Shown in pieces: positions 48,004 through 62,787 of a stretch of DNA of 64,000 nucleotides. Under the pieces are notes generated by a model that was not told the DNA's origin, made no database searches, and worked only from the letters and a program-made list of their open reading frames with translations. Origin of the DNA: Escherichia coli (GTDB lineage Bacteria; Pseudomonadota; Gammaproteobacteria; Enterobacterales; Enterobacteriaceae). Numbering within the stretch: the stretch's first letter is position 1; each line of letters begins with the position of its first letter. A program made the translations under genes and the position numbers. Where the stretch lies: the NCBI RefSeq assembly GCF_003991155.1, contig NZ_CP031293.1, one strand, 5' to 3'.

Positions 48004-49254
48004 ATGGAAAGTAAAGTAGTTGTTCCGGCACAAGGCAAGAAGATCACCCTGCAAAACGGCAAACTCAACGTTCCTGAAAATCCGATTATCCCTTACATTG
48101 AAGGTGATGGAATCGGTGTAGATGTAACCCCAGCCATGCTGAAAGTGGTCGACGCTGCAGTCGAGAAAGCCTATAAAGGCGAGCGTAAAATCTCCTGGAT
48201 GGAAATTTACACCGGTGAAAAATCCACACAGGTTTACGGTCAGGATGTCTGGCTGCCTGCTGAAACCCTTGATCTGATTCGTGAATATCGCGTTGCCATT
48301 AAAGGCCCGCTGACCACTCCGGTTGGTGGCGGTATTCGCTCTCTCAACGTTGCTCTGCGCCAGGAACTGGATCTCTACATCTGCCTGCGTCCGGTACGTT
48401 ACTATCAGGGCACTCCAAGCCCGGTTAAACACCCTGAACTGACCGATATGGTTATCTTCCGTGAAAACTCGGAAGACATTTATGCGGGTATCGAATGGAA
48501 AGCAGACTCTGCCGACGCTGAGAAAGTGATTAAATTCCTGCGTGAAGAGATGGGCGTGAAGAAAATTCGCTTCCCGGAACATTGCGGTATCGGTATTAAG
48601 CCGTGTTCTGAAGAAGGCACCAAACGTCTGGTTCGTGCAGCGATCGAATACGCAATTGCTAACGATCGTGACTCTGTGACCCTGGTGCACAAAGGCAACA
48701 TCATGAAGTTCACCGAAGGCGCGTTTAAAGACTGGGGCTACCAGCTGGCGCGTGAAGAGTTTGGCGGTGAACTGATCGACGGCGGCCCGTGGCTGAAAGT
48801 TAAAAACCCGAACACCGGCAAAGAGATCGTCATTAAAGACGTGATTGCTGACGCATTCCTGCAACAGATCCTGCTGCGTCCGGCTGAATATGATGTTATC
48901 GCCTGTATGAACCTGAACGGTGACTACATTTCTGACGCCCTGGCAGCACAGGTTGGCGGTATCGGTATCGCCCCTGGCGCAAACATCGGTGACGAATGCG
49001 CCCTGTTTGAAGCCACCCACGGTACTGCGCCGAAATATGCCGGTCAGGACAAAGTAAACCCAGGCTCTATTATTCTCTCCGCTGAGATGATGTTACGCCA
49101 TATGGGTTGGACTGAAGCCGCAGACCTGATTGTTAAAGGTATGGAAGGCGCGATCAACGCGAAGACTGTAACCTATGACTTCGAACGTCTGATGGAAGGC
49201 GCTAAACTGCTGAAATGTTCAGAGTTTGGTGATGCGATCATCAAGAATATGTAA
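48004..49254 (+). CDS. icd: NADP-dependent isocitrate dehydrogenase
   Basis: 416-aa [41 protein letters not shown]... with a complete C-terminus ...[13 protein letters not shown]. Confidence 0.97.
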
Positions 49255-49277
49255 TCACTACATGTGTTAAATATTGT

Positions 49278-49309
49278 AACGGGCGTATAACACGCCCGTT
49301 GTTTTATTT
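49278..49309 (+). terminator. Rho-independent terminator of icd
   Basis: Hairpin aacgggcg-tataaca-cgcccgtt followed by GTTTTATTT, about 25 nt after the icd stop. Confidence 0.65.
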
Positions 49310-49356
49310 ATGTGGATATTATTAATATCATGTCGAGAATATTTATATGAAGACCA

Positions 49357-49680
49357 TTACTTGAGCCCATATGGGCATATTTTTATAATGCAACTATTAT
49401 GCAAACATTTATTTGTTATTTTGCTTTCTCCTGGAGGACACTCTTGACTGCTTTTGAGTAAACTCCATAAATCCTTGTTGAATGGTGCGATGTTATAAAT
49501 AGTAATAGGATATTCTTTATCCTTAAGGATAATACCATACTTAACCGGTGTAAATATACTTCCAGGAGGGAGAAATATAGTAGATTGATACCAGATGATC
49601 ATTTTCATATCACCCCATATGGCTGAAAAAGATATGCCGCATGTAGGTTGAATTACCGTGTCAATTACTATCCACTTCAT
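49357..49680 (-). CDS. iraM: Anti-adapter protein IraM (RssB inhibitor stabilising RpoS)
   Basis: 107-aa [26 protein letters not shown]... in an AT-rich segment; matches the remembered IraM sequence and size. Confidence 0.82.
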
Positions 49681-50382
49681 TTGTTATGTCTTATCCCACG
49701 GTGCTTAATATAATTCATTTGGATGTTCATTTCTTGATTTTGCATATGTGTATATTACTCCCAAAAAAATAAATTAATTAAAAATTAATGTCATTATCTA
49801 TATAAAACAAAATTTAAAGCAAGGAATCTCAATAGAGATTAAACAAAATGAGATTTAGTGAAAACATTAAATTATTCACTTCGTTTTAGATTTGTTTAGC
49901 TAAAATGTTATACATTCAAATGACTGAATATTCTGTAATTAAAACATAGCCTTTATGCTACTTTGAGCCAATTTGCTAAACATTATGGTTGGCCTTTTAA
50001 TATAACGATAATGATGAATATAAGCATGACCTGAGAATAAGGTTTCAATTTTTTAGTTATATAGGAATGGTTAAACCCGTTCCTGACTAAAATACATATA
50101 ATCGGATGATGACTAAACCAAAACACATGTGCGTTAAGTATTGAAACGGGCGTATGGCACGCCCGTTGGTTTTATAAATATGTTAACCGTTATAAAATAA
50201 CGTATAGAAAGTCAAGTGATCACATTTCAAATATCAAGTTGATAGTATTGATCTGGTGATTATTTATGGGTGGCAATAAAAAGACAGTATTACTCATCCA
50301 TATGAATAGTCTCTGCACTTTTATTTCCATTATGCTAATGCCTTACTGAATTATGAAGCATTTTTTAAGCATCCAACTTTAG

Positions 50383-50787
50383 CTAGATTAATGGTTTATT
50401 GTTTTCTACATCTTCAATATATAAAAGCGTATTATCAATGGCGTAGTAACTGCGTTTGTTATGATTAACATCAGTAACCCACCGGAAAACGCCCGCGTCT
50501 GCCAGTGTTGAACAGTATTCCCGAAATGTAGATTTTCCGCAAATATGAAGCAATGCGGCCTCTTTTATTTTAGCAGGGTTCTTGGTCGTACTAACTTTTA
50601 ACAGGTTCCTGGTTCCTCTTAATAACAAAACCGTGTCATCGTGAGTAATAATTCTGATGTTATCCGTAGCTAGATAATAAATGTAATGTGCAATACGGTG
50701 ATGTTTTAATTCTGAATAAAACCAGGAGAAGTTTTGCTCTTTTCTCACTTGCTCAAACATCTTTTGAAAAACAACGACCTGATCCAT
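50383..50787 (-). CDS. ycgX: Uncharacterised DUF1398-family protein YcgX
   Basis: 134-aa ORF, position between iraM and bluR as in K-12. Confidence 0.78.
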   Translation of the reverse strand: MDQVVVFQKMFEQVRKEQNFSWFYSELKHHRIAHYIYYLATDNIRIITHDDTVLLLRGTRNLLKVSTTKNPAKIKEAALLHICGKSTFREYCSTLADAGVFRWVTDVNHNKRSYYAIDNTLLYIEDVENNKPLI

Positions 50788-51007
50788 CAGGATAATAACC
50801 TCTTGTTAGTTGTGAGACTGCGTAGTGTGCACGATCGGTTTTACCACTTCAATCTGGTCTGTCCTTTGGCTGTGATATGTACAAAGTGTGAAAGGGGGAT
50901 TACCTGAATTCTCCCGGTGAGCATTTTGTAATGGACCAGCTCCGGTACAAACGCTGTTGTGGGTTCAGATTATAACATTCTGTCTAAGGGGCGGGATAAA
51001 GGTGAAA

Positions 51008-51739
51008 TTAGGGGGCATGGAAGATGACTTTATAACCTTGCTCACCCCAGTGTTGTAAAAGTTCGTTTTGCCTTCTCGTTGGTGCCATGCCTGTCCAGAC
51101 AATTAATGTTTGCGTCGGGAACAGTTCCGGGCGCGGCGATTCAATGGGATCAGCAAGAACAGAAATGTGCCATCCTGACAATGATAAACGCCATGCTTCC
51201 AGCCACAATCGTGCTCTCTCTTCAACATTCCACGCCATCAGAATGGCTTCTTTACCGGGCTTACGGCGCATTTCGAAAAGCGAGGCTGCTGCGTATTCAA
51301 TTAATGCGCCGTCAAACATACTGCTCATAATGCGGGAGGTGTTGTGATCAAGCACGAGACGCTGGCGAACAGGAAGGTAAACATGATTAATCAATTGATC
51401 TACTGGGTACTCTCGGCCCAGTGAAATAATTCTCGCGCGTAGTTTGGCAGGATTAGCCATACGAAGAATTGACATCATCTCTTCTTGCAGGCGGCTCCAG
51501 TCATCTTCCGTATCCTGGCTGGTGGTTTCCAGTAATGCTTTAACTTTGCCTACAGGGACGCCATTACTTATCCAACGCTTGATCTCTTCGATGCGTTGTA
51601 TGTCTTCTTCATCAAAGAGTCGGTGTCCGCCTTCACTGCGCTGTGGTTTTAACAAACCGTAGCGGCGTTGCCAGGCCCGGAGAGTGACAGGATTAATCCC
51701 GCAACGTTCAGCAACATCACCAATGCTGTAATAAGCCAC
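51008..51739 (-). CDS. bluR: MerR-family transcriptional repressor BluR (YcgE)
   Basis: 243-aa ORF with N-terminal MerR helix-turn-helix [32 protein letters not shown]. Confidence 0.9.
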
Positions 51740-51943
51740 AATTCCTCCTTGCGGTCACAAATCTCCGTCGCCTGTACACGACCCAATAATACTTTGTACA
51801 ATATACGCTAAAATTGTACAAAGTATAAATAAGATTTCAGCTAAATTGAATGAAACATTATTTTTAATGTGGATTAAATTTAAACATAACGTATTCATTT
51901 TCACGATGATTTTCAGAAATCATACGAAATAATGTGCTGGAAA

Positions 51944-53155
51944 TTATTTTTTCTCCGGCCACGCAACTGAAGGGATACCATTCAATTTAGCTTTCGCAAA
52001 CAGATCTCCCTGAAACATCTCAATTCCTGCAGATTCAAGCCACATCCACTCTTCTGGTGTTGTCACACCCATAGCAGAGACTTGAATTTCAAGTGATGTA
52101 CAGCATTTTATGATCGCTTGAATAATTGCCTGCCGTGGCCCGCTTTTATGAACATTGGTAATCAATTCCTGACTGATTTTAATTCTGTCAGGCTGGAAGC
52201 GTGACAGGAGTAACAAACCGGCAAAACCTGCGCCAAAATGATCAATTGCTACACTGATACCGGCAGCCTTAAGCGATTTAATCGCTTCTGCAAACTCATC
52301 AAACCGAGATATGACTTCACTTTCAGTAAATTCAACGATGATTTGTTCAGGCACCAGAGCATTGGCCTTTATTTCATCAAGTAAAAAAGAGACTGCGTCA
52401 GGTTCGTTAACCAGGGTCATAGGTAATAGATTGATTGAAATCATTTTATCACCGAGCTCAAGTGCGTGTGCCATCGCGAATGCAAGCGCCTTACTTTTGA
52501 GATCCGCTGTATAGATTTCCCCGTCTTTACGCTGCCCAACCGCTATAGCTGATGGGCTATCTTCATTTTTTTGCACAATGGCTTCAAAAGCGATTATCCG
52601 CCGCGATAAGGGATCGACAATAGGATGAAAGGCAAAGTGGTCGTTTATAGTTGGTGAAAGGGTACAGGAATCAAGTTCTTTATCAGATCCGTCAGCGATA
52701 AAAAGCCAGGAGTCTTCGGCAGGGATCTCGAAATAGGTTGCTTGTTCGGTTGCAAGGACAAAAGTACGAAAAAATTGCAGCGCTCTGTCATCATAAGTTA
52801 GCTGAAATTTTGATGTGCCTTTGTCGAATACGGCCTGTAAAACGTCATCTCGCTCGTGCAGGCGCAAATCAAATAATTCCATTCCCGCTTTGCCAAAACG
52901 GCGAGCAGGCGCGTAATCGCACATCAGCTCAACAATATTATAGTGCCGTGGATCCTGGCATATAGCCCGATATATCATTTTAACCTGTTCTTCCGGACCT
53001 TCCAGAAGCTGGAAAAAATGAGAACCATTAAACAGTAAGATCCCTGTTACGTCAGACTGCATGTTCCTGCGATTTGCTATCGAAACCATTTCTTCGATTT
53101 TTTTGACAGGTTCGTCGTCACGTATATGGCTACGATAAATAAGGGTGGTAAGCAT
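51944..53155 (-). CDS. bluF: Blue-light sensor BLUF-EAL protein BluF (YcgF)
   Basis: ORF trimmed to ATG (plus-strand cat 53153-53155): MLTTLIYRSHIRDD... (403 aa); N-terminal BLUF domain plus C-terminal EAL-like domain. Confidence 0.9.
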   Translation of the reverse strand: MLTTLIYRSHIRDDEPVKKIEEMVSIANRRNMQSDVTGILLFNGSHFFQLLEGPEEQVKMIYRAICQDPRHYNIVELMCDYAPARRFGKAGMELFDLRLHERDDVLQAVFDKGTSKFQLTYDDRALQFFRTFVLATEQATYFEIPAEDSWLFIADGSDKELDSCTLSPTINDHFAFHPIVDPLSRRIIAFEAIVQKNEDSPSAIAVGQRKDGEIYTADLKSKALAFAMAHALELGDKMISINLLPMTLVNEPDAVSFLLDEIKANALVPEQIIVEFTESEVISRFDEFAEAIKSLKAAGISVAIDHFGAGFAGLLLLSRFQPDRIKISQELITNVHKSGPRQAIIQAIIKCCTSLEIQVSAMGVTTPEEWMWLESAGIEMFQGDLFAKAKLNGIPSVAWPEKK

Positions 53156-53468
53156 TAACTGTCCAGGGTAATGGGAGAGGCGAGAGTAAGACGGTAACAG
53201 ACATATCTTCCGGTGTCTTTCTTTTAATACCAAAACATAACTGTTTCTTTACATTGATAAAAAATGGAAAAAGTTGAAGATGAGTTGGCGAAAATTCTTG
53301 TATAGGTTGTTATTTAAATGATGCAATATTTTTTATCATAACCTGTTGTTTTGTATGTATTAGCACTAAATGCAAAAAATTAATTTATCATTTTGTACAC
53401 ATATTTCGTACAAGTTTGCTATTGTTACCTCACTTAACATTGATTAACATTTTTAACAGAGGCGTAGC

Positions 53469-53705
53469 ATGCATCAAAATTCAGTGACTTTAGATTCTGC
53501 GGGAGCAATCACTCGTTACTTTGCAAAAGCTAACTTGCCTACTCAGCAGGAAACTCTCGGGGAAATTGTGACTGAGATTTTGAAAGATGGACGTAATCTG
53601 AGTCGAAAGTCGCTTTGTGCCAAACTTCTAGGCAGACTGGAACAAGCGACAGGGGAAGAGGAACAGAAACATTATAATGCACTAATTGGGTTGCTTTTTG
53701 AATAA
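53469..53705 (+). CDS. ycgZ: Small regulatory protein YcgZ (YmgA/AriR/YcgZ connector family)
   Basis: 78-aa ORF, first of four small tandem ORFs divergent from bluF. Confidence 0.85.
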   Translation: MHQNSVTLDSAGAITRYFAKANLPTQQETLGEIVTEILKDGRNLSRKSLCAKLLGRLEQATGEEEQKHYNALIGLLFE

Positions 53706-53747
53706 TGCAACAGCCTGATTATTTAACAGGTTAGCTATGAAGTCGTT

Positions 53748-54020
53748 ATGAAGACATCTGATAATGAAAGTACAAAATATGAAATTACTGGCCAGGCGGT
53801 GCTCCAGATACTGCGCATGAAGATAAATTTTTCGTTGCAGACTCTTATTAAGCAATTACTCGTAATGAAATCTGTTGAGGAAAATGCTTTCCGACGAGAT
53901 TTAATTGACAGCATAATTCGTGATTTTAGTAACAGTGATACAGGAGGGCCAAACAGAAGAACAGCGATAACTGACAATAAAAGTATTTTCAATGGTAAGA
54001 AAATAAACAGAATACATTAA
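53748..54020 (+). CDS. ymgA: Small regulatory protein YmgA
   Basis: 90-aa ORF, second of the tandem small ORFs. Confidence 0.85.
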   Translation: MKTSDNESTKYEITGQAVLQILRMKINFSLQTLIKQLLVMKSVEENAFRRDLIDSIIRDFSNSDTGGPNRRTAITDNKSIFNGKKINRIH

Positions 54021-54048
54021 AATTTCATAAGTAAGATGAGAGGTTACT

Positions 54049-54315
54049 ATGCTTGAAGATACTACTATTCATAATGCAATAGCTGATAAAGCGTTATCAA
54101 GTTACTTTCGCAGTTCGGGTAATTTGTTAGAAGAAGAGTCAGCTGTGTTAGGGCAGGCTGTCACCAATTTAATGCTTTCAGGCGATAATGTTAATAATAA
54201 AAATATTATCTTAAGTCTGATACACTCCCTGGAAACAACAAATGATATCCTCAAAGCTGATGTGATCAGAAAAACACTGGAAATCGTGTTGCGATACACA
54301 GCGGATGATATGTGA
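54049..54315 (+). CDS. ariR: Small regulator AriR (YmgB)
   Basis: 88-aa ORF, paralogue-like to YmgA and YcgZ. Confidence 0.85.
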
Positions 54316-54427
54316 CTTTTAATTATTAAGTATAAATTTATAGAAAACTCATTCATCTTATTTTTGTCTGTCGCTTTAGACTATACACAGCATAATTTTA
54401 TTGGGTTAATATTTCTACGAGGCTGAC

Positions 54428-54676
54428 ATGAATAATTCAATCCCAGAGAGATTTATTTTGCAATGTGCTTTGTTTAAAAATCTCGAGAGGGAGGTGTTCA
54501 TGACGCATGGGTATGTTGATAGTTATATTATTGATCAGGCTTTACGCTTGCGTTTAAAAGATGAAACCAGTGTGATTCTTTCTGACCTCTATCTGCAAAT
54601 ATTGCAGTACATTGAAATGCATAAGACTACACTAACGGATATCATTATTAATGACAGGGAATCCGTGATCTCTTAG
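54428..54676 (+). CDS. ymgC: Small protein YmgC
   Basis: 82-aa ORF, last of the ycgZ-ymgA-ariR-ymgC cluster. Confidence 0.8.
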   Translation: MNNSIPERFILQCALFKNLEREVFMTHGYVDSYIIDQALRLRLKDETSVILSDLYLQILQYIEMHKTTLTDIIINDRESVIS

Positions 54677-54770
54677 AACTTGAGTAAGGTTATAGAATAA
54701 ACATCAGCTGTATTACCATGCTGGTGCAAAGTGAGCATTTCAGGCGTTATGCTTTCTTAATATGTCCGCA

Positions 54771-54824
54771 ATATCAGGTGTCAAGAATGGAGAGTTCTCG
54801 CTCTCCATTCTTGACACCTGATAT
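54771..54824. repeat. 24-bp perfect inverted repeat (large hairpin or cruciform)
   Basis: atatcaggtgtcaagaatggagag - ttctcg - ctctccattcttgacacctgatat, about 95 nt downstream of ymgC. Confidence 0.7.
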
Positions 54825-55007
54825 CCCGCCTAATTTATTTTATCCTATCTACATTATGCTCAATAATTAATGGGTTAGATCAAGATGGAGAAAATTTTAT
54901 CTTCGGCGTGGATATTTCTTATGCTCTCTACCATGCTCTCTGTAGATGCCAGCGCGAGCGAATGAATGGCATTTTCATGTATTAAACCCTTTGGCCGGGA
55001 CAAGCAA

Positions 55008-56531
55008 ATGCGCAATACACTCATACCCATCCTCGTTGCGATATGCTTGTTTATAACCGGTGTCGCTATTTTGAACATCCAGCTCTGGTATTCCGCAAAA
55101 GCAGAGTACCTGGCGGGAGCGAGATATGCCGCCAACAATATCAATCATATACTTGAAGAAGCGTCACAGGCGACTCAAACAGCGGTTAACATTGCCGGGA
55201 AGGAATGCGACCTCGAGGAGCAATATCAGCTTGGCACTGAAGCAGCTCTGAAACCTCACCTGCGCACAATCATCATTCTCAAACAGGGAACGGTCTGGTG
55301 TACATCCTTACCGGGGAATCGGGTCCTGCTGTCTCGTATTCCTGTTGTCCCGGACAGTAATTTACTGTTGGCTCCGGCAATCGACACCGTTAATAGATTA
55401 CCTATCCTGCTCTATCAGAGCCAATTTGCAGATACGCGCATTTTGGTTACGATAAGTGATCAGCATATTCGCGGGGCGCTTAATGTACCCTTGAAAGGGG
55501 TAAGGTATGTATTACGCGTGGCGGATGACATTATTGGACCTACGGGTGATGTGATGACGCTTAATGGACATTATCCCTATACCGAGAAGGTTCACTCCAC
55601 AAAATATCATTTCACTATTATCTTTAACCCGCCACCACTCTTTAGCTTCTACAGACTTATCGATAAAGGCTTTGGGATATTGATATTTATTCTGTTAATC
55701 GCCTGCGCCGCTGCTTTGCTGCTTGATAGGTATTTCAATAAAAGCGCAACGCCTGAAGAGATCCTGCGACGGGCTATAAATAATGGGGAGATCGTCCCTT
55801 TTTACCAACCTGTGGTAAATGGTCGGGAAGGGACATTGCGGGGAGTTGAGGTGTTAGCCCGCTGGAAACAACCTCACGGTGGATATATATCACCCGCGGC
55901 ATTTATTCCACTTGCTGAAAAATCCGGATTAATCGTTCCGCTTACGCAAAGCCTGATGAATCAGGTTGCCAGACAGATGAACGCTATCTCGAGTAAACTG
56001 CCGGAGGGTTTTCATATTGGAATTAATTTTAGCGCCTCGCATATTATTTCGCCGACGTTTGTCGACGAGTGCTTAAATTACCGTGACAGTTTTACCCGCC
56101 GCGATTTAAACCTCGTTCTGGAAGTCACCGAGCGTGAGCCATTAAATGTTGATGAAAGTCTGGTTCAGCGGTTGAACATTCTGCATGAAAATGGTTTTGT
56201 CATCGCGCTGGATGATTTCGGTACTGGCTACTCAGGGCTTTCTTATCTGCATGACCTGCATATTGATTATATCAAAATTGATCACAGTTTCGTTGGCCGC
56301 GTCAACGCAGACCCAGAATCAACCCGAATTCTGGATTGTGTATTGGATCTGGCGCGTAAACTTTCGATCAGTATCGTCGCTGAAGGTGTCGAAACGAAAG
56401 AACAACTTGATTATCTGAACCAAAATAATATCACATTTCAGCAGGGTTATTATTTCTATAAACCTGTTACATACATCGACCTGGTCAAAATTATCCTTTC
56501 TAAACCGAAGGTGAAGGTTGTGGTTGAGTGA
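55008..56531 (+). CDS. pdeG: CSS-motif-domain c-di-GMP phosphodiesterase (EAL)
   Basis: ORF trimmed to ATG 55008 (MRNTLIPILVAICLF..., 507 aa); N-terminal transmembrane segment, periplasmic domain, second transmembrane segment, C-terminal EAL-type domain. Confidence 0.87.
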   Translation: MRNTLIPILVAICLFITGVAILNIQLWYSAKAEYLAGARYAANNINHILEEASQATQTAVNIAGKECDLEEQYQLGTEAALKPHLRTIIILKQGTVWCTSLPGNRVLLSRIPVVPDSNLLLAPAIDTVNRLPILLYQSQFADTRILVTISDQHIRGALNVPLKGVRYVLRVADDIIGPTGDVMTLNGHYPYTEKVHSTKYHFTIIFNPPPLFSFYRLIDKGFGILIFILLIACAAALLLDRYFNKSATPEEILRRAINNGEIVPFYQPVVNGREGTLRGVEVLARWKQPHGGYISPAAFIPLAEKSGLIVPLTQSLMNQVARQMNAISSKLPEGFHIGINFSASHIISPTFVDECLNYRDSFTRRDLNLVLEVTEREPLNVDESLVQRLNILHENGFVIALDDFGTGYSGLSYLHDLHIDYIKIDHSFVGRVNADPESTRILDCVLDLARKLSISIVAEGVETKEQLDYLNQNNITFQQGYYFYKPVTYIDLVKIILSKPKVKVVVE

Positions 56532-56662
56532 AAATTGATCAGCAAGGCCATGGTGCGGTGTAATTATAGACAGCTAATTAGCTCGTTGCCTCTTGTTACT
56601 ATTGTTCATTATTTTGTTTGCTATAATTGTTTGAAAGTTTTGACAGGATTGCCATTAGTAGC

Positions 56663-56881
56663 ATGAACAATAGTAATAATCTGGATTATTTCACTCTCTA
56701 TATCATCTTTTCCATTGCATTTATGCTGATCACTCTCCTGGTCATCCTTATTGCAAAACCCAGTACCGGGCTGGGAGAAGTGCTTGTGACGATAAATTTG
56801 CTTAATGCCCTTGTTTGGCTGGCGATCAATCTGGTTAATCGATTAAGGGAAAGACTCGTCAGCCACAGGGATCAGCACTAA
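56663..56881 (+). CDS. ymgF: Small inner-membrane protein YmgF
   Basis: ORF trimmed to ATG 56663 (MNNSNNLDYFTLYIIFSIAFMLITLLVILIA..., 72 aa), two predicted transmembrane helices. Confidence 0.8.
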   Translation: MNNSNNLDYFTLYIIFSIAFMLITLLVILIAKPSTGLGEVLVTINLLNALVWLAINLVNRLRERLVSHRDQH

Positions 56882-57280
56882 ACTTTCAGTTTCTCACTGT
56901 CAGTATGCGGCTGAATGGGTTGCTGGCAGTGAACGCCTGGGTCATTGAAGGAAAGGTATTATTGCGCAAATAGTTGTCAACCCTGGTGTTATCACAGTTG
57001 TTTTTATATATCATCGAAATAATTCCAATGGCAACTATTAATAATTTTGATGTCGAAGAGTTATTTGTTAAACAAATTCGTCACTCCAAAGTGATCAATG
57101 TCATGAAAATAAGGTGAAAAATGATAATGCTGACTTATTTATCATTTATGTATTGTCGCTGTTTATCTATTTAAATTTCTTGTGCTTTTGTTTTTGTCTT
57201 TACCCTCCGTTTTGGTAATCTGAACTCATAGGTTATTTGACCAGGAATGTTTGTTAATCCAATGAATGGATGGTTAATCT

Positions 57281-59929
57281 ATGAAACTGAAAAAACTCCC
57301 CGGGTTTAGTTTGGGACTTATTGCTTTGGCGGTGGGTAATGCATATGCTGAACAGTTTATTCAGTACGATGAATATAAACATGCTGTGGCAATAAAAGAT
57401 GGAGAAGTAAAAGATATTGATAATGCGCTAGTTATAACAACGGGTAATGGAAGTTACGGGGTATCTGTTGCAGGAGAGGGTAGCAATTTAACCATTAACA
57501 AAGGCGTCATTGTAACAACGGGTGGTTTATATCCTTCTGGCAATAGTCCTCTAAGCACAGTATATACAGCTAGCGCAGTCGTAAGTGAATATGGCGGTGC
57601 AGTTATTTTGCAGGGTAATAATACGATTGTCACAACGGGGGATTACTCAATTGGTTTGCTAAGTCAAACGAATGGAAACCTGAATACTGATACCATAATA
57701 AGAGTCAACACTGACGGTTCGGTTAACCCCCATTTATCTGACGAAGGTAATACTTTTATTGTTACTGCGGGTAATCACGCAGTCGGCGTTCTTGCTTGTG
57801 CATCTCCCGGAAGCGCGCGTGCGTGTGTATCTTCTCTTGATGAAGAAAGTACTGCCGATACAGGAAGTAATGAAAATAACGCCAAAGCAAAACTGGATAT
57901 GGCAAAAGGGGAGATAACAACCCACGGAACAGAAAGTTATGCCGCTTACGCTAATGGCACTGTCGTCAAGGCGGGTAGCAAGCTTGATTATACCAATGCC
58001 AGCGTTACATTAACCGATGTTGATATTACCACGCATGGGGACAATGCTCATGCCATCGCTGCTCGCCAGGGGACTGTTTCATTTAACCAGGGAGAAATTC
58101 ATACAACGGGTCCTGACGCCGCGATTGCTAAAATTTATAATGGCGGCAAGGTGACGCTGAAAAATACATCTGCAGTCGCGCATCAGGGGGCTGGAATTGT
58201 GCTGGAGTCTTCCATAAATGGTCAGGAAGCAACGGTAGATATTTTATCTGGTAGCTCACTACGGTCAGCAAATGAAATCCTCTACAATAAAAATGAGACG
58301 AGTAACGTGACCATTACGGATAGTGAGGTATCATCGGCTGCAGATGTTTTTATTAATAATATTAAAGGTCATTTGGCCATCGATGCATCTAATTCAAAAA
58401 TAACGGGTTCAGCCAATCTTTCAACAGATGATAGCACTCATACCTATCTGTCGCTTTCAGATAATAGTACCTGGGATATTAAAACTGACTCAACGGTGAG
58501 CAAGCTCACGGTTGACAATAGTACGGTCTATATTTCCCGGGCAGATGGAAAGGCTTTCGAACCAACAAGATTAACAATAACTGAAAATTACGTTGGTAAT
58601 AATGGCATATTGCATCTCAGAACTGAATTGGGTGATGATAATTCAGCTACGGATAAAGTCGTTATTAATGGAAATACCTCTGGAACAACCCGAGTTAAAG
58701 TTACCAATGCTGGCGGCAGCGGGGCTTACACGTTAAATGGGATAGAGATTATCAGCGTTGAGGGGGAATCAAATGGGGAATTTATTAAGGATTCGAGGAT
58801 TTTCGCCGGTGCCTACGAATATTCATTAACCCGAGGTAATACCGAAGCGACCAATAAAAACTGGTATCTGACTAACTTCCAGGCAACGAGCGGCGGTGAA
58901 ACAAACTCCGGAGGAAGTTCAGCGCCTACTGTTGCGCCTACCCCCGTTCTGCGCCCCGAAGCTGGAAGTTACGTCGCCAACCTGGCAGCCGCTAACACTC
59001 TTTTTGTTATGCGTCTGAACGATCGTGCAGGTGAAACGCGCTACATCGATCCTGTAACTGAACAGGAGCGTTCAAGCCGACTTTGGCTACGTCAAATTGG
59101 CGGGCATAATGCCTGGCGTGACAGCAACGGACAGTTGAGAACGACCTCGCATCGCTACGTCTCGCAGTTAGGGGCGGAGCTGTTAACCGGTGGTTTTACC
59201 GACAGTGACAGTTGGCGTTTGGGAGTGATGGCTGGTTATGCCCGCGACTACAACTCAACTCATTCCAGCGTGTCGGATTATCGTTCGAAAGGGAGTGTCA
59301 GAGGCTATAGCGCAGGGCTGTATGCCACCTGGTTTGCCGATGACATCAGTAAAAAAGGCGCATACATTGACGCCTGGGCGCAATATAGCTGGTTTAAAAA
59401 CTCGGTGAAAGGAGATGAATTAGCCTATGAATCCTATAGCGCGAAAGGTGCAACCGTCTCGCTGGAAGCGGGTTACGGTTTTGCCCTGAATAAATCCTTT
59501 GGTCTGGAAGCGGCGAAATATACGTGGATCTTCCAGCCACAGGCACAGGCTATCTGGATGGGCGTCGATCATAATGCGCACACGGAAGCCAATGGCTCAC
59601 GTATTGAGAATGACGCAAATAACAACTTCCAGACCCGACTTGGTTTCCGCACCTTTATTCGTACTCAGGAGAAAAACAGCGGTCCTCACGGTGACGACTT
59701 TGAACCTTTTGTTGAAATGAACTGGATCCATAACAGTAAAGATTTTGCTGTCTCAATGAATGGTGTGAAAGTCGAACAAGACGGGGCGCGTAATCTGGGG
59801 GAAATTAAACTTGGCGTAAATGGCAACCTGAATCCGGCGGCCAGTGTCTGGGGTAATGTGGGCGTGCAGCTGGGTGATAATGGCTACAATGACACCGCAG
59901 TGATGGTGGGCCTGAAATATAAGTTCTGA
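57281..59929 (+). CDS. ycgH: Autotransporter (type Va secretion), full-length
   Basis: Uninterrupted 882-aa ORF: signal peptide MKLKKLPGFSLGLIALAVGNAYA, Thr/Gly/Asn-rich beta-helical passenger, C-terminal beta-barrel ending ...VMVGLKYKF. Confidence 0.85.
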   Translation: MKLKKLPGFSLGLIALAVGNAYAEQFIQYDEYKHAVAIKDGEVKDIDNALVITTGNGSYGVSVAGEGSNLTINKGVIVTTGGLYPSGNSPLSTVYTASAVVSEYGGAVILQGNNTIVTTGDYSIGLLSQTNGNLNTDTIIRVNTDGSVNPHLSDEGNTFIVTAGNHAVGVLACASPGSARACVSSLDEESTADTGSNENNAKAKLDMAKGEITTHGTESYAAYANGTVVKAGSKLDYTNASVTLTDVDITTHGDNAHAIAARQGTVSFNQGEIHTTGPDAAIAKIYNGGKVTLKNTSAVAHQGAGIVLESSINGQEATVDILSGSSLRSANEILYNKNETSNVTITDSEVSSAADVFINNIKGHLAIDASNSKITGSANLSTDDSTHTYLSLSDNSTWDIKTDSTVSKLTVDNSTVYISRADGKAFEPTRLTITENYVGNNGILHLRTELGDDNSATDKVVINGNTSGTTRVKVTNAGGSGAYTLNGIEIISVEGESNGEFIKDSRIFAGAYEYSLTRGNTEATNKNWYLTNFQATSGGETNSGGSSAPTVAPTPVLRPEAGSYVANLAAANTLFVMRLNDRAGETRYIDPVTEQERSSRLWLRQIGGHNAWRDSNGQLRTTSHRYVSQLGAELLTGGFTDSDSWRLGVMAGYARDYNSTHSSVSDYRSKGSVRGYSAGLYATWFADDISKKGAYIDAWAQYSWFKNSVKGDELAYESYSAKGATVSLEAGYGFALNKSFGLEAAKYTWIFQPQAQAIWMGVDHNAHTEANGSRIENDANNNFQTRLGFRTFIRTQEKNSGPHGDDFEPFVEMNWIHNSKDFAVSMNGVKVEQDGARNLGEIKLGVNGNLNPAASVWGNVGVQLGDNGYNDTAVMVGLKYKF

Positions 59930-59943
59930 TCCCGCCATTAGCT

Positions 59944-59973
59944 AAAAAACCGCGTCGATTTCATCGACGCGGT
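59944..59973 (-). terminator. Rho-independent terminator downstream of ymgD (also follows ycgH on the other strand)
   Basis: Hairpin accgcgtcgat-ttc-atcgacgcggt preceded on the plus strand by an A-run (a U-run on the minus-strand transcript). Confidence 0.6.
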
Positions 59974-59986
59974 AACATATTAAATA

Positions 59987-60316
59987 TTATTTTTTGCCGA
60001 TAGTACGCATGGTGTCATCAATTGCCGTGATCAACAGCATTTGCGGGTCTTTAGCGCAAACCTGATTCAGTTTTTCTACCACTTTGGCGCTCAGTTCCGG
60101 AGATTGCTCAATTTTTAAATCACGGCTGGCAACGCTGGCATTACCCATTACCGCAACAATTTCTGCAACCTGTGCGCTGTCAGTTTTTGCCATTTCGTTG
60201 GCTTCTGCGCAAGTAATATAGGTTTCTGACGGCAAACCGTTTTTAATATTGTAGTCCTGCGCCCAGGTCATTGGTGCGAAAACAAACAGACCCGCCAGTA
60301 AAGCAAATTTTTTCAT
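59987..60316 (-). CDS. ymgD: Periplasmic protein YmgD
   Basis: ORF trimmed to MKKFALLAGLFVFAPMTWAQDY (signal peptide), 109 aa. Confidence 0.85.
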   Translation of the reverse strand: MKKFALLAGLFVFAPMTWAQDYNIKNGLPSETYITCAEANEMAKTDSAQVAEIVAVMGNASVASRDLKIEQSPELSAKVVEKLNQVCAKDPQMLLITAIDDTMRTIGKK

Positions 60317-60325
60317 CATCATTCC

Positions 60326-60670
60326 TTATTTCATTTTACCCAGAATTGCACCACCCGTACCGCCAATCACGGCACCTTTAATCGCCCCTTCGAGGCCATT
60401 TCCGGTCAGAACGCCAGTGACAGCACCAACGGCGGCACCCACTTTTGCACCTTTACGCGCATTTTTACCGTCGCGGCCTTTTTCTGTTACTGCACCAACA
60501 CCAGCGCCAACAGCTGCACCTTTCAGTACGCCATTAACACCATTGCCAGTAAGTAAACCAACGCCTGCGCCTAGCAATGCACCTTTCGTGGTGCGATTCA
60601 TATCCGCCATCGCTGGCGTGGAGCAGAACAATGCTGAGATAAGCCCGAAGGCAAGTATTTTTTTCTTCAA
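60326..60670 (-). CDS. ymgG: Glycine-zipper lipoprotein/membrane protein YmgG
   Basis: 114-aa ORF with lipobox-like signal peptide and highly repetitive Gly/Ala-rich GxxxG sequence. Confidence 0.85.
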
Positions 60671-60671
60671 C

Positions 60672-60845
60672 TTAGATGTCCGGTATTAAGTAAGTTGCAC
60701 ACACAATAATTTCGTCTTCAATTAAGATCGGCTTAACTAAAGAACGCTCGCTATTATTCAGATAATTCAAAATGAGCGTGACTGTGATGATAGGAATTAT
60801 GTTTTTTACGGGAATAAGAATAATCTCAAATGAGAAATAACTCAT
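60672..60845 (-). CDS. ymgI: Small hydrophobic protein, probable YmgI
   Basis: Hand-translated 57-aa minus-strand [60 protein letters not shown]; its stop lies 1 nt upstream of the ymgG start codon; below the ORF-track size cutoff. Confidence 0.55.
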
Positions 60846-60945
60846 TGATTGACAATATTTTTATTCAAGAAGTGTCATTGAGTGTTAATACAATGTTGTA
60901 AAGGTAAGATAATCTGATTTATGAATATTATTGTGTGATTTTTAT

Positions 60946-61131
60946 GTGAGCAGAAAATATTCATCAGCAATGATTACATTAGTCATTTTATTTTGTCGAC
61001 GGCCTCATTGTCGAAAAATAAGCGTACAACAGTATTATCAGAAAAGAGTGATTTTTTATCCAACTACACTTCAGCGCACTGCGTTTAAAAAATGCCTCTT
61101 TCTTATGCGGGATATCATTATTTCATCATGA
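60946..61131 (+). CDS. ymgJ: Small protein, possibly YmgJ
   Basis: 61-aa reading frame from GTG 60946 inside the 66-aa track ORF; size and position match ymgJ of K-12; sequence identity not verified. Confidence 0.4.

Positions 61132-61537: not shown

Positions 61538-62787
<1,250 letters not shown>

Follow-up and report, generated by a model that had tools for sequence, protein, structure and literature searches.

The AT-rich block downstream of icd in an Escherichia coli genome is probably a patchwork of modules gathered at a phage integration site

We analysed a 64,000-nucleotide stretch of Escherichia coli DNA (contig NZ_CP031293.1 of assembly GCF_003991155.1; hereafter the window), with the focus on an AT-rich block at 49300–57280 that lies immediately downstream of icd and encodes the anti-adaptor IraM, the DUF1398 protein YcgX, the blue-light proteins BluR and BluF with their small connector proteins, the EAL phosphodiesterase PdeG and YmgF. 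The variable region between icd and minE is well known in E. coli, and the block makes up its icd-proximal end. Gene calls were taken from the RefSeq annotation of NZ_CP024826.1 (strain CREC-544), which is 100% identical over the 7,981 bp of the block. An earlier note on this DNA, made from the letters alone, had named ten genes here; all ten are present where it placed them, and the same open reading frames (ORFs) appear in a mechanical ORF list. The K-12 locus is 93–99% identical to the block at the nucleotide level, depending on the segment. To the left lie icd, rluE, nudJ, mnmA, hflD, purB and phoPQ; to the right, an intact autotransporter gene, ymgD, ymgG, ymgI, ymgJ, a ycgI pseudogene, an IS3 element and minE/minD. 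The features are as follows, with genes and micro-ORFs according to the RefSeq annotation.

49090–49307, plus strand: last 165 nt of icd and a 53-bp tail, the segment copied by phage 21-type phages at their attachment site
49308–50124, minus strand: iraM–ymgK segment, 817 bp, indel-polymorphic, with a very AT-rich promoter region
49357–49680, minus strand: iraM
49939–49983, within the iraM–ymgK segment (minus strand): ymgK micro-ORF
50125–50175, plus strand: orphan second copy of the icd terminator (tail2), a direct repeat with 49260–49307
50220–50330, within the ymgL–ycgX part (minus strand): ymgL micro-ORF
50383–50787, minus strand: ycgX, DUF1398 protein
51008–51739, minus strand: bluR, MerR/MlrA-like repressor
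51944–53155, minus strand: bluF, anti-repressor with BLUF and degenerate EAL domains
53156–53468, no strand assigned: divergent bluF/ycgZ control region, 313 bp, guanine-plus-cytosine (GC) content 0.31, 93% identical to K-12
53469–54676, plus strand: ycgZ–ymgA–ariR–ymgC operon, small helical connector proteins
53469–53705, plus strand: ycgZ
53748–54020, plus strand: ymgA
54049–54315, plus strand: ariR
54428–54676, plus strand: ymgC
54771–54824, plus strand: perfect 24-bp inverted repeat with a 6-nt loop, 95 nt past ymgC (RNA fold −44.9 kcal/mol, z −12.95)
55008–56531, plus strand: pdeG, membrane CSS-domain EAL phosphodiesterase
56663–56881, plus strand: ymgF
57281–61131, no strand assigned: continuation of the AT-rich variable zone, with the autotransporter gene, ymgD, ymgG, ymgI and ymgJ

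Composition separates the block from the DNA to its left. GC content is 0.395 over 49255–57280 versus 0.514 for the 49 kb to the left, where every 8-kb window has a GC of at least 0.495. With the window's 48 annotated core genes as reference, the codon-index z-scores of the block genes run from −1.9 to −4.1 and their z-scores for GC at third codon positions (GC3) from −0.8 to −4.4; bluR (GC 0.489) and pdeG (GC 0.455) are only mildly atypical. Coding density is 0.70 versus 0.92 on the left, and the median spacer 204 bp versus 48 bp (Mann–Whitney p = 0.0016). Sliding-window GC and codon usage alike thus bear out the contrast with a compact core that the earlier note had drawn. It had also put the long spacers at 200–450 bp, which does not hold for all spacers: in order they measure 102, 702, 220, 204, 313, 42, 28, 112, 331, 131 and 399 bp, that is, 28–702 bp, with the longest containing ymgK, ymgL and the orphan terminator copy. 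The right edge it had set at 57280 proves arbitrary, as the AT-rich zone continues through the autotransporter gene, ymgD, ymgG, ymgI and ymgJ to about 61150.

The block begins at 49308, directly after the icd segment shared with phage 21-like phages. The last 165 nt of icd (49090–49254) are 97.6% identical to phage 21 (AF017626.1) versus 91.5% to the native K-12 icdC type, and the adjoining tail (49255–49307), which holds the icd terminator hairpin at 49276–49302, is 98–100% identical to phage 21-like phages. This phage-21-type 3′ end occurs with no prophage present, and the remainder of icd matches K-12 at 98.3% identity. Precisely this site is occupied in K-12 by e14, with icdC, the tail and iraM after it; the window strain has no e14. 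Presence–absence polymorphism of iraM and iraL has been published, together with the statement that iraM is ‘on e14’ (PMC4045071), which does not fit the window strain, since it has iraM but lacks e14.

The terminator is duplicated. Its second copy, tail2, shares 86% identity with the first over 43–51 nt at a spacing of 867 bp, and the pair forms the longest direct repeat in the block; the tail2 hairpin (50145–50167) scores as a terminator, with no plus-strand gene upstream of it. Between the copies stands the iraM–ymgK segment. Across 5,426 complete E. coli genomes, which underlie all frequencies given here, the segment is found in 3,878 (71%), mostly at 90–95% identity, and a clean empty site, where icd with its terminator is joined directly to ymgL, in 1,036 (19%). 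What the empty-site genomes lack is exactly what the two terminator copies bracket. The duplicated terminator is a structural scar, and accounts for the presence of iraM in only about 71% of strains. The locus resembles e14 and phage 21 integrations at icd in having the same 165-nt plus 53-nt segment that those phages duplicate, with a further terminator copy downstream. It differs in having no prophage, only the iraM and ymgK insert between the copies, and no displaced icd fragment that could be detected either at tail2 or at the distal end of the region in E. coli. The right flank of tail2 matches the flank on the e14 side at about 10 of 12 bases, a likeness too weak to use. The insert is most likely the remnant of an icd-integrated prophage that carried an IraM-family moron.

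IraM matches the curated NCBIfam IraM model (NF007393; 170 bits, cut-off 121) and the solved IraM chain (PDB 8twd, E 4.7e-41). A Pfam search with E values up to 10 returned no PmrD match, although precomputed annotations list PF11183; the membership of IraM among PmrD proteins therefore rests on fold and not on a sequence profile. The window protein resembles the PmrD-type connectors and the IraM/IraL/RssC anti-adaptors in these curated-model and structure matches, and the IraM–RssB structure and PmrD-like fold have been published (PMC10844676). The family forms 34 clusters, all from Escherichia, and its diversity (51–76% identity, many clusters) lies in prophages. Away from icd, five contexts were examined, and all are lambdoid prophages: Stx2 phages, three from E. 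coli and one from E. albertii. In each, the gene sits between the antiterminator gene Q and the holin gene on the opposite strand, and in two it directly adjoins stx2B. One prophage has both an IraM-type and a YcgX-type gene, on the same strand. These phage genes are placed like lambdoid morons (bor, lom and the stx slot between Q and S), counter to late transcription. Chromosomal iraM and ycgX, unlike phage morons, have no phage flanks, and iraM is under host regulation (PhoP and H-NS, according to the literature). In some lambdoid prophages (L060, 8814–9773; also L061 and L062) the IraM-family gene is followed on the same strand by a gene for the lipid A deacylase LpxR, a pairing of two PhoP-world functions in one phage cargo slot.

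YcgX is a full-length match to Pfam DUF1398 (YbcV/YdfO/YcgX; 161 bits), the family to which it had been assigned, and has a solved homologue, YdfO (2hh8), whose fold it shares. A fold search with YcgX gave no functional lead. In the structure model the DUF1398 fold looks like an internal duplication (helix–helix–strand–strand–strand, twice) that makes a sheet platform; its weak structural neighbours are platforms like those of major histocompatibility complex class I proteins. Relatives of YcgX are encoded beside bor in lambda and beside Nu1 in an E. albertii prophage, both in the same counter-orientation as the IraM-family genes, and another lies at a different chromosomal locus in cryptic-clade Escherichia. 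We infer, less firmly than for iraM, that ycgX is a phage accessory gene that remained at the icd integration site.

The central part of the block is the blue-light cassette. BluF has an N-terminal BLUF domain (Pfam, 86 bits) and a C-terminal EAL domain (167 bits), and aligns with BlrP1 (PDB 3gfx) over residues 1–401 (E 1.2e-98). At five positions for catalysis or metal binding it no longer has the residues of the active BlrP1 (EAL-R to EAI-Q, DDFG to DHFG, K-V-D to K-I-S, EGVE to MGVT), and its EAL domain was therefore rightly called degenerate. BluR, described as a MerR-type repressor, carries the Pfam domains expected of one of the MlrA kind (MerR_1, 67 bits; MlrA_helical, 101 bits; MlrA_C, 111 bits). 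Gene order, orientation, the degenerate BluF, the MlrA-like BluR and the divergent control region are all those of the K-12 blue-light and low-temperature locus (Tschowri et al. 2009, 2012; PMC3509220). The window strain differs from K-12 in lacking e14, in its phage-21-type icd 3′ end and in its intact downstream autotransporter.

AriR (89 bits) and YcgZ (26.9 bits) both pass the cut-off of Pfam PF10798 (YmgB; 22.3), and hhalign pairs them at 96.6% (E 6e-10). YmgA and YmgC have no Pfam match up to E 10 and reach hhalign E values of 3e-4 (YmgA, marginal) and 2.8e-4 (YmgC). The earlier note had spoken of three paralogous small connectors; YcgZ and AriR are clear homologues and YmgA only a marginal one. 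In its structure model YmgC has an AriR-like helical fold, which suggests a fourth AriR-like connector. The inverted repeat past ymgC is probably an operon terminator or an mRNA-stabilising hairpin; K-12 has a single G·U-compatible change in it, and strain ERP001 an insertion and several mismatches. In the bluF–ycgZ spacer of K-12, an RpoD promoter site and an H-NS site are among those reported (PMC3946193). The ycgZ promoter is controlled by BluR, sigma-S and MarA (PMC3509220, PMC6900184), and a link between YmgB and SpoT has been published.

Outside E. coli, we scanned species-representative genomes by BluF alignment with two peptide patterns and obtained 51 BluF loci from at least 15 genera. 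The divergent architecture of bluR/bluF and ycgZ-(ymgA)-ariR is kept in about 22 of them. Within 10 kb of the 51 loci, no iraM, ymgL, ycgX, full-length pdeG or ymgF was found. The chromosomal context of the blu unit differs in nearly every genus, and only one locus, that of Citrobacter amalonaticus, adjoins icd. In most hosts the GC of the cassette is 3–8 points under that of its flanks whatever the host GC, so low GC travels with the blu genes. Some BluF homologues have no adjacent BluR (Rahnella L036–L043 and L048; L032, L033, L044 and L057); ycgZ/ariR-like small genes adjoin them in another arrangement, and the link of BluF to the small proteins seems older than its link to BluR. In C. amalonaticus (L055, 2131–2238 and 16698–17945) the 3′ end of icd recurs as an incomplete copy (53 aa) at a distance of 14.5 kb from the intact gene. 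Between the copies lie the blu unit, in which bluF is apparently frameshifted, a ycgH-like autotransporter gene, and genes for GNAT, SnoaL and WYL-regulator proteins.

Tschowri, Lindenberg and Hengge (2012; PMC3509220) described bluR–bluF–ycgZ–ymgAB as the minimal unit in several enterics, absent from Salmonella, Yersinia and O157:H7; they noted prophage homologues of ycgX and proposed phage-associated horizontal transfer of the entire region. Contrary to that account, ymgC homologues (47–54%) are present in blu loci of the Citrobacter freundii complex, and a Citrobacter has a pdeG orthologue (72%). In the latter genome, an unclassified Citrobacter (L063), icd is followed by ycgX (71%), full-length pdeG and then a small membrane ORF, with no blu unit.

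PdeG combines an EAL domain (Pfam, 224 bits) with a CSS-motif domain (PF12792, 107 bits, residues 31–217) that the earlier description had missed. Compared with PA3825-EAL, its EAL signature is complete (EVL-R, NFS, EVTE, DDFGTGYS, KID, AEGVE, QQG), and the earlier assignment as an active-type phosphodiesterase is what these motifs predict. In the translation, Cys67 and Cys98 lie between hydrophobic stretches at about 5–27 and 221–243. The CSS domain between two hydrophobic segments, the two cysteines and the complete EAL signature are shared with the CSS-domain EAL phosphodiesterases of E. coli (PdeC type), reportedly the subject of Herbst et al. in 2018. PdeG departs from that type in that its motif reads C-T-S instead of C-S-S, and pdeG is truncated at its 5′ end in part of the species. 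An IS1-mediated deletion occurs in one genome. One E. coli subset (for example ERP001; L004, 8848–9741) lacks iraM and has a pdeG pseudogene without its first 630 nt, the two states occurring together. YmgF is a small, division-associated membrane protein and matches its NCBIfam equivalog model with 141 bits.

The long spacers had been proposed as H-NS-silenced promoters. To judge from its title, a 2012 study by Battesti et al. is said to deal with H-NS regulation of IraM. Genomic SELEX (systematic evolution of ligands by exponential enrichment) with K-12 DNA lists, among its sites, H-NS sites in five of the spacers: iraM–ycgX and bluR–bluF (both leftward), bluF–ycgZ (divergent), and ymgC–ycgG and ymgF–ycgH (both rightward; Shimada et al. 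2014, PMC3946193). The spacer promoters may be silenced by H-NS in the window strain. Promoter-like hexamer pairs are not enriched (23 versus 26.6 ± 4.7 in dinucleotide shuffles), so the letters alone give no evidence for extra promoters. An Rfam scan of 47–64 kb in E-value mode placed no RNA family in the spacers, giving a sub-threshold tpke11 match on the icd terminator and an isrC match outside the block.

Taken together, these data make it probable that the block is a patchwork in which at least four modules, each with a history of its own, have accumulated beside the 3′ end of icd, an integration site of lambdoid phages (phage 21, e14). The iraM–ymgK module would be a prophage leftover, inserted between the two icd terminator copies. 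The ymgL–ycgX module is one DUF1398 gene, of a type found beside bor or Nu1 in lambda-like phages. The bluR–bluF and ycgZ–ymgA–ariR–ymgC module is a self-contained signalling cassette, present in many Enterobacterales at varied loci, and the pdeG–ymgF module would be a fourth, with pdeG directly beside ycgX and icd in the blu-less Citrobacter. At least two modules, iraM and ycgX, have phage relatives; that they came from prophages, and the order of events, is what we infer.

The distribution within the species agrees. The adjacent 8 kb of core is present in 5,424 of the 5,426 genomes (about 98.3% identity) and the whole block in 4,775 (88%; about 96.9% identity). The modules are not inherited together: the patchiness goes module by module. 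Because the modules are distributed differently both inside and outside E. coli, a single contiguous islet is unsupported. Of the usual marks of a genomic island, the block shows a composition and codon usage unlike the core and a known integration site at its left edge. No pair of repeats spans 49300–57280, and only the iraM–ymgK sub-segment is bracketed.

Several observations weigh against the patchwork. No mobility or phage structural gene (integrase, transposase) appears in the ORF list or the annotation of 49300–57280, and in blastn (word size 7) and tblastx searches of the DNA flanking iraM and ycgX, similarity to phages was confined to the reading frames, apart from about 80 nt preceding ycgX. 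Which way the iraM indel went is ambiguous: the empty-site allele has the tail1-type terminator, which is compatible with an empty site that is ancestral and also with one made later by deletion between the two repeats, and the Citrobacter outgroup (L063) has an IS200-like remnant at the iraM site that is uninformative on polarity. Since C. amalonaticus, like E. coli, has the blu unit downstream of icd, an old icd-linked position is possible. Absences in the BluF scan are weak evidence, because it used two peptide patterns and returned no Escherichia or Klebsiella even though E. coli BluF conforms to those patterns; we attribute this to the scan and do not read it as absence. The spacer occupancy by H-NS was measured in vitro with K-12, among the sites reported in PMC3946193, and ycgX is reported to respond to Hha/YdgT, not to H-NS/StpA (PMC3686432).

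It is very improbable that the block is a single islet, gained in one phage-mediated acquisition at icd and then eroded differently in each strain. Such an origin would suit the contiguous AT-rich composition, the abutment on the icd phage attachment segment and the phage-associated acquisition of the entire region proposed in PMC3509220, and the second partial icd 3′ copy beyond the blu unit and autotransporter of C. amalonaticus is insert-like. Yet the blu unit occurs at non-icd loci in many genera without iraM, ycgX, pdeG or ymgF, and ycgX and pdeG occur without the blu unit. iraM has flanking repeats and a frequency of its own, and E. coli has neither a repeat around the whole block nor an icd fragment at its far end. 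Distinctly unlikely, too, is old vertical inheritance, in which AT-richness would come from relaxed codon selection on weakly expressed, H-NS-regulated genes or from selection for curved AT-rich control DNA, and patchiness from repeated loss. Overwhelmingly prophage-borne IraM and YcgX families speak against it, as do the changing context of the blu unit in nearly every genus, its reported absence from Salmonella and Yersinia (Tschowri et al., PMC3509220) and a terminator duplication that loss alone leaves unexplained. This is so despite the presence of the block in 88% of E. coli, the GC deficit of the blu unit in hosts of any GC, its shared position after icd in E. coli and C. amalonaticus, and losses that can be seen directly (the IS1 deletion, the pdeG truncation).

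A narrower alternative concerns iraM: the terminator copies could stem from a local tandem duplication or a recombination accident, and iraM could be an ancestral chromosomal gene picked up by phages. In its favour, iraM has no phage DNA on either side, host genes do get captured by phages, and recombination between the repeats would suffice to make the empty-site allele. However, the family is restricted to Escherichia with its diversity (51–76% identity) in prophages, always in the Q–holin slot, and what is duplicated corresponds exactly to the segment carried by phages that integrate at icd, ending at the same base, 49307. We regard this alternative as unlikely, and prefer a patchwork in which the iraM–ymgK insert is a prophage remnant.

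To the right, the AT-rich zone opens with the autotransporter gene at 57281–59929, which is intact (882 aa) and matches the NCBIfam autotransporter barrel domain; elsewhere it is a pseudogene (ycgH, in K-12) or truncated (ERP001, ET650). Against K-12, its first 68 nt and its 3′ half align (the latter at 88% identity) and nothing else does. The IS3 nearest to the block lies at 61538–62715. The match to isrC, an Rfam family of Hfq-binding small RNAs, is at 62597–62719 on the minus strand (145 bits, E 1e-35); it overlaps the IS3 end, between the ycgI remnant and minE.

Functionally, each module would add one input to the core global network, as published or as suggested by domain content. IraM, induced by PhoP, would bind and block RssB and so stabilise RpoS, as published. 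BluF, activated by blue light or cold, would titrate BluR off the ycgZ promoter, again as published; YcgZ, YmgA, AriR and probably YmgC would then act on RcsC, and AriR on SpoT as well. PdeG is predicted from its motifs to hydrolyse cyclic di-GMP under periplasmic redox control, and YmgF would associate with the divisome. Each module would have its own promoter in an AT-rich spacer, five of these spacers being bound by H-NS in vitro, and dedicated regulators (PhoP, BluF/BluR, sigma-S, MarA) would overcome basal silencing by H-NS.

The locus is largely published already: the BluF/BluR–Ymg–Rcs pathway, the role of IraM as an RssB anti-adaptor with a PmrD fold, the H-NS sites and the suggestion of phage transfer. 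The earlier note is accordingly a correct re-description of known biology. What we add are modest refinements, namely the mosaic structure, the iraM terminator duplication, the IraM prophage slot, the modelled AriR-like fold of YmgC and the orthologues outside E. coli. pdeG, ycgX and ymgC are not confined to E. coli, and the placement of iraM on e14 is corrected by a strain that has the gene and lacks the prophage. These points could serve specialists; otherwise a textbook-level locus is re-described.

Beyond this we offer a wider proposal, tentatively and as one that may well fail. The DNA downstream of icd may be a layered record of successive prophage integrations that pushed older remnants outward (e14 in K-12, iraM–ymgK, ymgL–ycgX), and IraM, the host's anti-adaptor for Mg starvation, a domesticated lambdoid moron; the Q–holin IraM genes, including those beside stx2B, may encode active anti-adaptors of RssB through which prophages raise RpoS in their lysogens. 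IraM-family genes are standard cargo of the Q–holin slot in lambdoid and Stx phages, and their position there makes the question of whether prophages manipulate RpoS stability directly testable.

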